A DNA stretch of 64,000 bases from Clostridia bacterium (GTDB lineage: Bacteria > Bacillota > DAOUPZ01), in NCBI GenBank assembly GCA_030625885.1, contig DAOUPZ010000002.1:130545-194544 (forward strand), given 5' to 3'. The position numbers and the translations under genes were made by a program. Under the pieces are notes generated by a model. That model worked only from the letters and a program-made list of their open reading frames with translations, was not told where the DNA came from and ran no database searches. Positions within the stretch are counted from its first letter, which is position 1. The number at the start of each line of letters is the position of its first letter. Positions 45,040 through 45,805 of this stretch are shown one piece after another.

Positions 45040-45245
45040 AAACGATTGCTCTTTTTTTTGGTAGAAGGAAAAAAGATAAAGGATAAAAAGAGGTAGAAGG
45101 TAGAAGGATAAAGATTAAAGATAAAAGAGGTGGAAGGATAAAAGATTAAAGATAAAGAGACGTAGAAGGTGGAAGGATAAAGATAAAAGAGGTAGAAGGT
45201 GGAAGGACAAAAGATAATAGATTAAAGATTCGTTGAAGGGAAAAG
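45040..45245 (+). repeat. purine-rich tandem array (about 5 units of GGTAGAAGGTGGAAGGATAAAGAT[TAAAGAT]AAAAGAG) upstream of the second four-helix-bundle gene
   Basis: read directly; shares GGTAG..AAAGATTAAAGA core with the CAGGTAG left arms. Confidence 0.8.
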
Positions 45246-45324
45246 ATAAATATAAAATATGTTAAAAATGGAAGGAAAAGAAAAATGTTAAGCGAATTAA
45301 TTTCTAGAATTATATAATAGGTGG

Positions 45325-45699
45325 GTGATATTTATGATAGAGGTTAATTCGTTTGAGAGATTGGAAGTATGGCAATTTGCATATAAATTTTCACTTGAGA
45401 TTTACAGGTTAGTAAGTAATTTTCCCAATAAAGAGAAGTATGGGCTGGTAGACCAATTATGCAGAGCGGCTGTTTCTGTTCCTGTAAATATTGCTGAAGG
45501 CAGTGGCAGAGGTTCGATAAAGGATTTTCAAAGATTTTTATATATTGCCAGAGGATCTTTAGAAGAAACAAAGAGTCATTTATTAATAGCTAAAGGTTTA
45601 GGTTATGTGCAAGAAAAAGAATTCGAAACAATAATGGCTTTGGCCCAAAGAATAGGCAAAATGCTTAACGGACTAATAAAAAGTAACAGCAAAAAATAA
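45325..45699 (+). CDS. four-helix-bundle protein (23S rRNA intervening-sequence protein / Avd-like family), second copy
   Basis: LEVWQFAYKFSLEIYRL...[13 protein letters not shown]; about 50% identical to 42808-43185; flanked by inverted purine-rich/pyrimidine-rich repeat arrays. Confidence 0.7.
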   Translation: MIFMIEVNSFERLEVWQFAYKFSLEIYRLVSNFPNKEKYGLVDQLCRAAVSVPVNIAEGSGRGSIKDFQRFLYIARGSLEETKSHLLIAKGLGYVQEKEFETIMALAQRIGKMLNGLIKSNSKK

Positions 45700-45702
45700 C
45701 CT

Positions 45703-45805
45703 TGAATTATATCTTTAATCCTTCACCTTCCACCTTCAACGTCTTTTAATCCTTAAATCCCTTATCTTTTACCTTCTACCTTGAACCTTCCACCTTCAAC
45801 CATCA
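45703..45805 (+). repeat. pyrimidine-rich array that is the inverted counterpart of 45040-45245 (CCTTCCACCTTC / CTTTTACCTTCTACC units)
   Basis: reverse complement reads GGTTGAAGGTGGAAGGTTCAAGGTAGAAGGTAAAAGATAAGGGATTTAAGGATTAAAAGACGTTGAAGGTGGAAGG. Confidence 0.8.

Follow-up and report, generated by a model that had tools for sequence, protein, structure and literature searches.

A four-helix-bundle gene bracketed by inverted heptamer arrays in a Clostridial genome, and the recurrence of this design around PF05635 genes

At about 45 kb in the 64-kb stretch of Clostridial DNA analyzed here (referred to below as the window), a small gene lies between a purine-rich and a pyrimidine-rich tandem array. 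Do the gene and the arrays form a single element, and if so, of what kind? An earlier note on this DNA had likened the arrangement to a ribosomal intervening sequence (IVS), and large 23S rRNA IVSs with an S23p/PF05635 ORF are indeed found in Leptospira, Coxiella (helix 45), Brucella, and Haemophilus. PF05635 (S23p) is a very large family for which, to our knowledge, a function is known only in diversity-generating retroelements (DGRs). Its presence in rRNA genes, cas operons, and housekeeping operons has been a puzzle since the 1990s, and the excess of heptamer tandem repeats in bacteria is likewise unexplained. The features discussed here are as follows.

45028 to 45060, + strand: terminator-like hairpin of yajC, an 11-pair stem and then a T8 run adjoining the left array
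45060 to 45245, + strand: left arm, composite and rich in purines (83%; 3 C in 186 nt), built on a 7-nt period overlaid by higher-order periods of 31 to 38 and 69 nt; weaker continuation to ca. 45279
45246 to 45333, + strand: leader, 88 nt from the left arm to the start codon, with a Shine-Dalgarno-like GGTGGGTGA at 45320 to 45328
45334 to 45699, + strand: four-helix-bundle (4HB) ORF, intact, 121 aa, PF05635/TIGR02436
45700 to 45805, + strand: right arm, pyrimidine rich, period 7, reverse complement of left-arm units, beginning right at the stop codon
45806 to 45822, + strand: A-rich tract; read against the T8 run (45053 to 45060), it prolongs the inverted symmetry
42756 to 42787, + strand: left arm of the paralogous cassette, AGCAGGTAGCAACCAGCAGGTAGGAGGTAGGG
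42808 to 43185, + strand: paralogous PF05635 ORF between queA and tgt, 49.6% identical to the ORF at 45334
43194 to 43224, + strand: right arm of the paralogous cassette, CCTACCTGCTACCTGCTGTTTGCTACCTGCT, starting 9 nt past the stop codon
56741 to 57115, + strand: so-called relic, with a purine-rich array at 56741 to 56810 and a pyrimidine-rich array at 57069 to 57115

Anatomy of the 45-kb cassette and its paralogue

The gene is what the earlier note had taken it to be, a four-helix-bundle gene. Its product matches PF05635 over the full profile (positions 1 to 106 of 106; E value of 1.4e-40; 138.2 bits against a cutoff of 33.8) and TIGR02436 with an E value of 8.6e-39 (132.1 bits; cutoff of 24), and the motif typical of the family, R-x3-S-x3-N-x2-E-G, is present (CRAAVSVPVNIAEG). 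The nearest solved structure is XCC0516 (2GSC; E value of 1.1e-22), and 2RLD matches with an E value of 1e-4.

The inverted purine and pyrimidine arrays around this gene are real. Tandem Repeats Finder detected an array at 45060 to 45279 with periods of 7, 31, 38, and 69 and another at 45771 to 45805 with periods of 7 and 14. The right arm has only 3 G in 103 nt (counted over 45703 to 45805). Since the strongest period in both arms is lag 7 (0.58 and 0.59) and lag 38 comes second in the left arm, the tandem unit of ca. 38 nt first described, although repeated as claimed (ca. 5 to 6 GGTRGAAGG cores in the left array), is a higher-order repeat of heptamers, and the basic period is 7 nt. The left-arm heptamers are GGTAGAA, GGTGGAA, GGATAAA, GATTAAA, and GATAAAA.

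When the left flank was aligned with the reverse complement of the right flank, the Smith-Waterman score was 59, while composition-preserving shuffles gave 21.6 ± 2.8 with a maximum of 32. Complementarity between the arms amounts to 67 nt at 75%, 45 nt at 82%, and 23 nt at 91%. When as many as 2 mismatches are allowed, GGTRGAAGGTRGAAGG occurs 12 times in the window versus 0.04 expected. Ten of these sites are found at 45092 to 45206 (+), 45726 to 45801 (−), and 56741 to 56763 (+), and the other two, at 36084 and 36276, are CAGGTAG-array sites. The core in common with the CAGGTAG elements, CAGGTAGG followed by AAAGATTAAAA, has 13 occurrences (0.02 expected).

Folding of 45040 to 45830, as the earlier note had proposed, paired the left arm with the right arm in both the minimum-free-energy and the centroid structures (z of −5.5; none of 20 shuffles was as stable). 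The predicted stem around the gene is thus retained, but not at the upper end of the 100 to 200 nt first suggested; given that the arms are unequal (ca. 186 versus ca. 105 nt), a stem of ca. 95 to 100 nt is possible.

The paralogue is bracketed in the same way as the 45-kb gene, by AGCAGGT/CTACCTG arrays. Its arms score 53 against 14.3 ± 2.2 for shuffles, and 42756 to 42787 pairs with 43194 to 43224 in the minimum-free-energy and centroid structures (z of −3.0). The heptamer units in common and the identical layout at 42808 to 43185 support the earlier proposal of a sister subfamily of the CAGGTAG elements sharing a GGTAG core.

The 45-kb cassette lies outside operons, between yajC and an S-layer-homology (SLH) gene. 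We found no consensus promoter upstream of the left arm and no consensus sigma-70 promoter in the leader (45246 to 45333) at the scan threshold. Given the terminator-like hairpin that precedes the left arm and the lack of a consensus promoter, a two-arm transcript would need read-through from yajC. The T8 run following this hairpin and the A-rich tract beyond the right array are complementary. The downstream SLH gene has its own strong promoter (45995 to 46024), so insulation is not obviously needed at this site.

Known categories were also considered. Rfam families, CRISPR, and a diversity-generating retroelement were all rejected for this feature. An Rfam scan detected no rRNA in the window, and the insertion into rRNA (at helix 25 or helix 45) that characterizes a 23S IVS is absent here. 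The array units are contiguous, without the spacers of a CRISPR array. A DGR accessory Avd protein was discarded on scores below cutoff (30.8 bits versus 80 for NF033474 and 28.1 versus 40 for PF22296) and on the neighbors, yajC and the SLH protein.

Heptamer arrays across the window

Lag-7 arrays are not limited to the two cassettes. They are present in 28 of the 36 intergenic gaps longer than 60 nt and cover 12.7% of intergenic bases versus 0.43% of coding bases. At least six unit families coexist with two 4HB genes in the 64 kb. Most of the inverted pairs in the window (ca. 20) have neither a gene nor a detectable 4HB remnant; the arrays here are therefore a genome-wide intergenic system and not simply the ends of 4HB elements, and they must have a life of their own. 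It is the CAGGTAG type that is dispersed as inverted pairs; GGTRGAAGG-type arrays are found at only two places in the window.

The polarity described earlier, purine rich upstream and pyrimidine rich downstream, does not hold as a property of gene direction, an inverted pair being G rich first on either strand. Two pairs in the window have the pyrimidine-rich array first (18319/18532 and 35098/35217), and purine arrays without a partner occur at 27585 to 27680.

The second place with GGTRGAAGG-type units is the pair that had been described as a relic of the same kind (56746 to 56830 and 57060 to 57110) flanking a 62-aa ORF. Purine and pyrimidine arrays do exist there, but their complementarity is at chance level (score of 20 versus 18.1 ± 2.9; longest arm pair of 10 nt), and we rejected the idea of a decayed cassette. 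The interval holds a promoter-like TTTACA-17-TATAAT and a 52- to 62-aa ORF (56864 to 57051) that is not 4HB. A six-frame hmmsearch with the family profile revealed no 4HB pseudogene remnant in the relic or in the ORF-free pairs, the best nongene match having an E value of 1.5.

PF05635 genes are bracketed by inverted arrays across phyla

The suggestion that similar arrays might be found at other PF05635 genes and in rRNA operons proved fruitful. We sampled 150 unrelated PF05635 loci (75 from genomes and 75 from metagenomes), equivalent to 60 independent clusters, and counted a flank-to-flank inverted repeat at a score of ≥30. Such repeats were present at 44 of 75 genome loci (0 of 277 shifted controls) and at 42 of 75 metagenome loci (0 of 676 shifted controls when those of the two locus sets are combined). 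By cluster, 39 of 60 had flanking inverted arms, compared with 5 of 157 real neighboring genes (Fisher P = 3e-22). The period of the arms was 7 in 21 clusters, 8 in 8, and 6 in 2. PF05635 genes are thus systematically bracketed by inverted arrays of 7- to 8-nt units, with fixed polarity and spacing: the left arm had more G than C in 37 of 39 clusters, and the medians place its end 51 nt before the start codon and the start of the right arm 14 nt past the stop codon. Along similar lines, an array detected by Tandem Repeats Finder lay no more than 200 nt from the gene on its upstream side in 40 of 60 clusters and on its downstream side in 37 of 60 (background of 3.3%), and array density in the 250 nt around the PF05635 gene was ca. 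6 times that in the remainder of the same loci. Complementary arms are missing in about one-third of the clusters. In some close relatives (Caminicella loci L164 and L165), the arrays are noncomplementary or one sided.

The same design is found in rRNA insertions and at ordinary intergenic sites. Three of the loci (L091, L092, and L136) are bacterial LSU (23S) rRNA genes with the PF05635 ORF inserted near model position 1200 and bracketed by purine-first arms with a 7-nt period. An rRNA origin was also considered for the conserved flanks of the Bacteroidota loci and rejected, no rRNA being present there; these flanks are kdpA, kdpB, and kdpC, and what had looked like a sample of 80 loci was for this reason collapsed to independent clusters. 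Cassettes inside operons include queA-tgt in the window and kdpA-kdpB in Bacteroidota, and in Pleurocapsa, one sits in the cmr3-cmr2 gap (PMC3936711). A cyanobacterial PF05635 locus has (AGGGGTT)n/(AACCCCT)n arms. Scans of genome and metagenome contigs gave no relative of the window cassette above ca. 53% identity. Its sole exact match was a short-read Logan contig (run SRR14270297, a cold-seep glycine-betaine microcosm metagenome), which is identical to the window.

We also compared cassettes among related loci. At 48 orthologous kdpA-kdpB loci, the left arm paired better with its own right arm than with those of other loci (29.0 versus 24.5; permutation P = 2e-4); in these loci, the arms coevolve. 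Unit-count variation between strains, which the earlier note had proposed as a check, was seen in a related Clostridial lineage, the window organism being represented by one strain: “Candidatus Petromonas” assemblies 99.3 to 99.6% identical differ by arm indels of exactly 7 nt. Arms can also be swapped along with the gene. Among three “Ca. Petromonas” assemblies that are 99.3 to 100% identical elsewhere, one cassette has been wholly replaced, with 4HB proteins 56% identical and both arms changed from the GGTAACC type to the GCTAATA/CTATTAG type. In related Clostridia, 4HB genes occupy differing gaps of a syntenic flgG-fabZ-wzz-wzyC cluster, and a gap filled in one genome measures only 38 nt in another. 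Across clusters, protein and unit sequences showed no visible covariation at 40 to 55% protein identity. Mismatches in the arms of the 39 clusters showed no excess of G:U wobble (37 G:U compatible versus 46 A:C). Without such an excess, there is no sign of selection on the sense RNA in particular, and a DNA-level process could equally preserve the complementarity.

A proposed IVS-type RNA cassette and its alternatives

The explanation we favor, at roughly even confidence, is that the feature is a non-rRNA counterpart of the large 23S IVSs: a PF05635 ORF with a short leader, enclosed by inverted arms of 7-nt units that pair in RNA. In a transcript containing both arms, a C-free purine 5′ arm and a G-free pyrimidine 3′ arm would be each other's sole partners and would zip into a long, imperfect duplex around the ORF alone, one that would tolerate register shifts because any unit pairs with any complementary unit. 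This duplex would be a substrate for the host RNase III, whose cut would release the RNA of the cassette from host RNA on either side; we propose that the cassette would so be harmless in rRNA, inside operons, or between genes. Replication slippage would alter the arms in 7-nt steps, with selection, conversion, or both maintaining their complementarity. The same set of heptamers has spread through this Clostridial genome, most of whose intergenic regions have ORF-free pairs of them. That the 45-kb locus is transcribed across both arms, that RNase III cleaves them, and that any benefit follows are steps that we infer.

The Coxiella helix-45 IVS, which contains an S23p ORF, offers the closest precedent: it has a 28-bp terminal stem that is cut by RNase III in vitro, with ends mapped by RACE, and 2 to 3 tandem GACAGAT heptamers in its 5′ arm region that vary in number between strains (PMC4990558). 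These heptamers had previously been reported only as a local peculiarity. Heptamers in an RNase III-cut stem, together with the three insertions in 23S rRNA genes, uphold the likeness to a ribosomal IVS, as do the shared ORF family and the terminal complementary arms around the ORF. On the other hand, the window cassettes lie between protein-coding genes and not in rRNA; their arms (ca. 186 and ca. 105 nt) are composite and far longer than the Coxiella stem; and the window ORF is intact, with a Shine-Dalgarno-like sequence, whereas that of Coxiella is decaying and probably untranslated. The observation in the earlier note is partly confirmed and its interpretation partly supported.

An alternative to which we assign a real but minor chance is a mobile or exchangeable cassette acting at the level of DNA, in which the arrays are terminal inverted repeats or recombination substrates, and gene and arms move as a unit through homologous or slipped recombination between arrays or a trans-acting recombinase. 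Complementarity would then stem from end generation or palindrome conversion rather than from RNA function. The wholesale swap in “Ca. Petromonas,” the variable gaps of the syntenic cluster (38 nt where empty), the mismatches without G:U bias, and the insertion of IS110-family elements beside similar paired arrays in G. metallireducens (PMC2700814) all fit such a model. Nevertheless, no transposase or recombinase lies in or beside the 45-kb cassette (the neighbors are yajC and the SLH protein), and the 4HB protein, of ca. 120 aa, has no known catalytic motif. Direct reading revealed no target-site duplication outside the arms of either cassette, array ends being hard to define. In addition, the Bacteroidota kdpA-kdpB cassette, being orthologous over many genera, is an old and stable element, not an actively mobile one, and the tandem short units and the G-rich-arm-first order are left unexplained.

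Less probable still, in our opinion, is a protein-repeat system resembling REPtrons (RAYT transposase genes with their own REP repeats on either side), in which a basic, pentameric 4HB protein binds the arrays at 7- to 8-nt spacing, in the form of single-stranded RNA or DNA, and acts genome-wide, with the cognate arrays flanking their own gene for autoregulation or spreading from it. The setting of a gene between its own repeats, plus many ORF-free pairs, mirrors the RAYT/REP organization: both systems have dispersed short intergenic repeats, mostly as hairpin-capable inverted pairs, and a small gene within an inverted pair of the same repeats. They differ in that the enclosed gene here is only PF05635, not a Y1 HUH transposase, and that the repeats are 7-nt tandem arrays without internal palindromes, while REPs are imperfect palindromes of 20 to 40 nt. 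Each “Ca. Petromonas” 4HB allele stands beside its own arm type, and the two paralogues in the window come with two array types. Avd, a 4HB homologue, is a pentamer that binds nucleic acid and the reverse transcriptase, as described in the DGR literature. The window protein has a homologous fold, a weak PF22296/NF033474 match, and a likely pentameric state, but its gene has neither a neighboring reverse transcriptase nor template or variable repeats. We know of no demonstration of nucleic acid binding by PF05635 members outside DGRs. A pentamer would be consistent with the five chains per crystal entry (2GSC and 2RLD) and with the description of XCC0516 as a homopentameric toroid (PMC4990558). 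Genomes reported to be rich in heptamer arrays also carry the family, and XCC0516 itself has a 4-unit GGGAATC array at the gene start, in a source whose authors list the gene only as “conserved” (PMC4692102 supplement). Against this model, units are quite different at loci whose proteins share 45 to 54% identity with those of the window, the Coxiella IVS persists though its protein is probably not made (PMC4990558), and at least six unit families face only two 4HB genes in the 64 kb.

Coincidence seems very unlikely to us. The arrays would be generic slippage-prone intergenic repeats, such as mRNA-stabilizing or -terminating stem-loops (REP/BIME and BOX) or Shine-Dalgarno-like 5′ stabilizers in Firmicutes, and a 4HB gene would happen to sit in one. 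The frequency of arrays in intergenic gaps (28 of 36), the ca. 20 ORF-free pairs, the same vocabulary in gaps without 4HB genes in related Clostridia, and the Shine-Dalgarno-like strings in the purine arms (AAGGTGGA and GGAGGT) are what would be expected. BOX elements of Streptococcus pneumoniae and mosaic BIMEs are also modular, with variable tandem subunits between complementary end modules and a predicted RNA stem-loop; compared by layout and not by sequence, BOX differs in having no ORF. BOX units measure 45 to 59 nt, versus 7 nt in the window. However, the association with PF05635 holds in phyla without array-saturated genomes (39 of 60 versus 5 of 157), GGTRGAAGG-type arrays are almost confined to the 45-kb cassette within the window, and both window 4HB genes have well-matched arms tightly around the ORF.

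The arrays also resemble known heptamer repeats, namely, cyanobacterial STRR, Xanthomonas GGGAATC, Beggiatoaceae TAACTGA, and the “global regulator sites” of G. metallireducens. These are intergenic tandem units of 7 to 9 nt, often in convergent opposite-strand pairs with variable spacing, and their length differs between related genomes (PMC4692102, PMC4679880, and PMC2700814). The window arrays differ in being composite, with several unit types in fixed order, and no PF05635 link is drawn in those three papers. A literature search, thin on subscription journals, found no paper stating a general association between PF05635 and arrays.

A broader reading, speculative and in our estimation improbable, is that PF05635 genes and arrays of 6- to 8-nt units form a widespread two-part element, so far unrecognized, in which the arrays, in the form of single-stranded RNA or DNA, would be what the pentameric protein acts on, and cassettes and their ORF-free derivatives would seed heptamer arrays. 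If this were true, the arrays of cyanobacterial STRR, Xanthomonas GGGAATC, the Geobacter paired sites, and this Clostridial lineage would have been seeded likewise; the G-rich strand pointing to the gene from both sides and the unit length of 6 to 8 nt would reflect how arrays are made or read; and one explanation would serve for both the orphan protein family and the repeat class, which has so far lacked one. Taken together, the systematic bracketing, the common design of rRNA and intergenic sites, and the stepwise changes and swaps of the arms turn two loose observations into one testable object: a cassette that is “self-insulating” at the RNA level or, possibly, a system of protein and repeats.

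The four-helix-bundle cassette at 45 kb

The open reading frame (ORF) at 45334 to 45699 encodes an intact, full-length four-helix-bundle (4HB) protein of the PF05635/TIGR02436 (S23p) family, whose nearest solved structure is XCC0516 (2GSC; E value, 1e-22). The DGR protein Avd was rejected as its identity, with scores under the Avd cutoffs. Since it is adjoined by yajC and an S-layer-homology (SLH) gene, the ORF does not belong to a retroelement. Directly 5' of the left arm, yajC ends in a terminator-like hairpin with a T8 run. The SLH gene is served by a strong promoter of its own (45995 to 46024), and within the cassette no consensus promoter turned up.

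The left arm (45060 to ca. 45245) is purine rich (97 A, 58 G, 28 T, and 3 C), with periods of 7, 31, 38, and 69 in Tandem Repeats Finder. The earlier note had described tandem units of ca. 38 nt upstream of the gene; the array exists, but since self-similarity peaked at lag 7 (0.58), with lag 38 second, the basic unit is a heptamer, and the 38-nt unit is a higher-order repeat of GGTAGAA, GGTGGAA, GGATAAA, GATTAAA, and GATAAAA. The right arm (45700 to 45805), a pyrimidine-rich mirror of the left, begins directly 3' of the stop codon and contains 3 G's in 103 nt (counted over 45703 to 45805; lag 7, 0.59). As had been claimed, the downstream array is the reverse complement of the upstream one, with inverted-repeat matches of 67 nt (75%), 45 nt (82%), and 23 nt (91%). 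When the right flank was reverse complemented and compared with the left flank under fixed scoring, the score was 59, versus 21.6 ± 2.8 for shuffles preserving the skewed composition of each arm. The potential stem enclosing the gene was recovered as well, the arms pairing in the minimum-free-energy as well as the centroid structure predicted for the RNA of 45040 to 45830 (z, -5.5).

A paralogous ORF (49.6% identity) lies at 42808 to 43185, in the queA/tgt gap, between AGCAGGT-type and CTACCTG-type arms (score of 53 versus 14.3 ± 2.2) that are also predicted to pair in both folds. Within the window, GGTRGAAGG-type arrays were found only in the 45-kb cassette and at 56741 to 56763. They have a common vocabulary with the CAGGTAG family, in agreement with the unit core noticed before: the window holds 13 junctions of CAGGTAGG and then AAAGATTAAAA.

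984, 14482, 17108, 17600, 27595, 30177, 31867, 34025, 36927, 37785, 39855, and others, plus strand: junctions of CAGGTAGG and AAAGATTAAAA

Because this junction is always on the plus strand, the CAGGTAG elements (array pairs elsewhere in the window) are oriented and not true palindromes. Gene and replication direction are inseparable here, since 43 of 46 window genes and the GC skew (+0.19) agree.

A pair at 56.7 to 57.1 kb around a 62-amino-acid ORF had been taken for a relic of the same kind. Each side has the expected base composition; arm complementarity was at chance level and the ORF showed no relation to the 4HB family, so that this claim fell. Apart from the relic, the observation is real.

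Arrays across the window

Lag-7 arrays made up 12.7% of intergenic versus 0.43% of coding bases and were present in 28 of 36 intergenic gaps of >60 nt. Most were inverted pairs around 50 to 250 nt without an ORF, and a six-frame profile search found no decayed 4HB gene inside these ORF-free pairs. About 20 pairs have the purine- or G-rich arm first and two the pyrimidine arm (18319/18532 and 35098/35217); some purine arrays are unpaired (27585 to 27680). Since an inverted pair is identical on both strands, the purine-arm-upstream order is a property of the pair, uninformative on gene direction. Other features of the window were as follows.

18319 to 18566: pair of reversed polarity, pyrimidine- or T-rich arm first (AATTCAT/TGAATTA)
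35096 to 35239: pair of the same reversed polarity (CAGTTCT/CTGAGAA), between convergent genes
12585 to 12830, 31905 to 32004, 36103 to 36271, 39010 to 39177, 41492 to 41660: five CAGGTAG/CTACCTG pairs enclosing a conserved noncoding module of ca. 170 nt
about 17170 to 17215, 37015 to 37060, 44545 to 44600: module of ca. 45 nt, repeated within three array pairs
54213 to 55170: 330-nt unit, 2.9 copies at 88% identity, within a 966-amino-acid ORF (52293 to 55193)
5881 to 6100, 13134 to 13364: T-box leaders
8139 to 8274: L20 leader
52077 to 52211: Moco/tungsten riboswitch

The ca. 170-nt module (consensus ACTAGATAGTTTGAG..TAGTAAAGG.TGGT.GA..TTGAAGG.TAAGT.AATACTAA.TTTTTA..) showed neither an Rfam match nor any 4HB similarity and could be a small RNA or promoter module. 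The ca. 45-nt module, AATGCAAGAATGGGGACATTCCGTAAGGTA(C/T)GAGCGGTGTGTC(C/A)C, stayed under the gathering score of every Rfam family. The 330-nt repeat corresponds to domains repeated in tandem within a large protein, secreted or on the surface. The T-boxes, L20 leader, riboswitch, SLH S-layer gene, and queA-tgt-yajC order point to a Clostridia-type Firmicute.

Inverted arms around PF05635 genes in other lineages

For comparison, we took PF05635 loci from reference genomes and from metagenomes, 80 of each, an independent test set because none is closely related (identity of 53% or less). Of 75 genome loci, 44 had flank-to-flank inverted repeats with a score of ≥30, as did 42 of 75 metagenome loci, against 0 of 676 shifted controls. 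Given that many loci are orthologous, the 150 were clustered into 60 independent groups, 39 of which had inverted arms (score, ≥30) versus 5 of 157 real neighboring genes at the same loci (Fisher P = 3e-22). Among these 39, arms were tandem arrays of period 7 in 21 groups, 8 in 8, and 6 in 2, and the left arm had more G than C in 37. Median distances were 51 nt from left-arm end to start codon and 14 nt from stop codon to right-arm start. The units vary by lineage (AGTAGGGC, GTGGAC, GGCGGTAA, GGTAGGT, AGGTGGA, GCGAATG, GAGACAG, ATGTGAR, AAAGTCGT, GGGAATA, and AGGGGTT). The window cassette matches this cross-lineage template and is among its largest examples.

In about 62 Bacteroidota loci (Flavobacterium, Niabella, Dyadobacter, Pedobacter, and Saprospiraceae), the gene lies antisense between kdpA and kdpB; these flanks are not rRNA. 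The orthologous genes (L004 to L082 and L083 to L162) are flanked by ATGTGAR-type heptamer arrays. Some Bacteroidota loci have very long arrays (10 to 18 units, up to 170 nt), and in one (L055) a complete hairpin of opposed arrays, not a single arm, stands on each side of the 4HB gene. The kdpA-kdpB cassette is an old, vertically inherited insertion within a conserved operon, and at these loci the left arm pairs better with its own right arm than with those of other loci (permutation P = 2e-4). In an Elainellaceae cyanobacterium, arrays of G-rich heptamers, the unit resembling a telomere repeat, flank the gene.

L011: kdpB, 830 to 2971; 4HB gene, 2989 to 3348; kdpA, 3458 to 5179
L075, 451 to 809; L055, 2618 to 2740 and 3554 to 3648; L059, 3536 to 3682: very long Bacteroidota arrays
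L167, 1304 to 1973: cyanobacterial 4HB gene with (AGGGGTT)n upstream and (AACCCCT)n downstream
L168/L169/L170, about 1900 to 2550 and 6506 to 6630: "Candidatus Petromonas" array differences and cassette swap

The nearest relatives (55 to 61% identity) were Clostridia, among them Caminicella sporogenes and "Ca. Petromonas." In their genomes, a single syntenic gene cluster harbors 4HB genes, though not in the same gaps. Intergenic gaps of related Clostridia use the same heptamer vocabulary as the window, and TTCTTAG/CTAAGAA units, as in its opposite-polarity pairs, flank 4HB genes in L166 and L168. Unit-count variation between strains was found in three "Ca. Petromonas" assemblies: at an overall identity of 99.3 to 99.6%, with a more divergent stretch in L169, they differ by exactly one 7-nt unit in each of two arrays. 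In L169, the whole cassette was replaced, with proteins 56% identical and both arm types switched. Downstream lies a 56-nt composite repeat in which the two right-arm types alternate.

Mechanism and the link to ribosomal intervening sequences

A model acting at the RNA level is the best supported. C-free and G-free arms would have no pairing partner but each other and may form a register-tolerant duplex around the ORF; host RNase III could cut it, and we propose that the cassette is therefore tolerated in rRNA and operons. Against this stand the lack of a G:U excess among arm mismatches (37 versus 46), the terminator ahead of the left arm at 45 kb, the missing complementary arms in about a third of clusters, and the many ORF-free pairs in the window genome. 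The rival models are a cassette exchanged as DNA, supported by the whole-cassette swap in "Ca. Petromonas," and a protein-repeat system like RAYT/REP, which the gene-and-arrays layout and the pentameric structure of the family suggest by analogy. A possible reason for the G-rich arm coming first is that, as the arm transcribed earlier, it may mask the C-rich, G-poor arm, on which the termination factor Rho would otherwise be loaded.

Heptamer arrays and convergent pairs are known in Xanthomonas, Nostoc, Beggiatoaceae, and Geobacter, with no link drawn to PF05635. In the Xanthomonas supplementary table, repeat no. 15 (Xcc 622956 to 622983), a four-unit GGGAATC array, overlaps the annotated start of XCC0516, the crystallized family member, listed merely as "conserved" (PMC4692102). 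PF05635 genes have been noted within cas operons and, in Candidate Phyla Radiation (CPR) bacteria, within rRNA insertions, still as "uncharacterised." The literature searched, which was incomplete in coverage, yielded no statement of a general PF05635-plus-array architecture; this amounts to absence of evidence and no more.

The likeness to a ribosomal intervening sequence (IVS) drawn in the earlier note is well founded. Three loci (L091, L092, and L136) proved to be true 23S rRNA genes of bacteria, interrupted near model position 1200 by an insertion that holds the ORF; their arms are 7-nt periodic, purine first, and close against the ORF. In the best-studied case, the Coxiella helix-45 IVS, a 28-bp terminal stem is cut in vitro by RNase III at mapped positions, and 2 or 3 tandem GACAGAT heptamers, depending on the strain, lie upstream of the S23p ORF (PMC4990558). 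In the archaeal L080 and L139, a PF05635 gene lies several hundred nucleotides downstream of the 23S 3' end; in L080 (867 to 1163), a Woesearchaeota LSU rRNA gene carries a group I intron.

The feature in the window appears to be a cassette of the IVS kind located outside rRNA; it is a new, nonribosomal, unusually large variant of the IVS-type S23p cassette. The earlier interpretation was largely right but too narrow. The window cassette also exposes a cross-phylum regularity.
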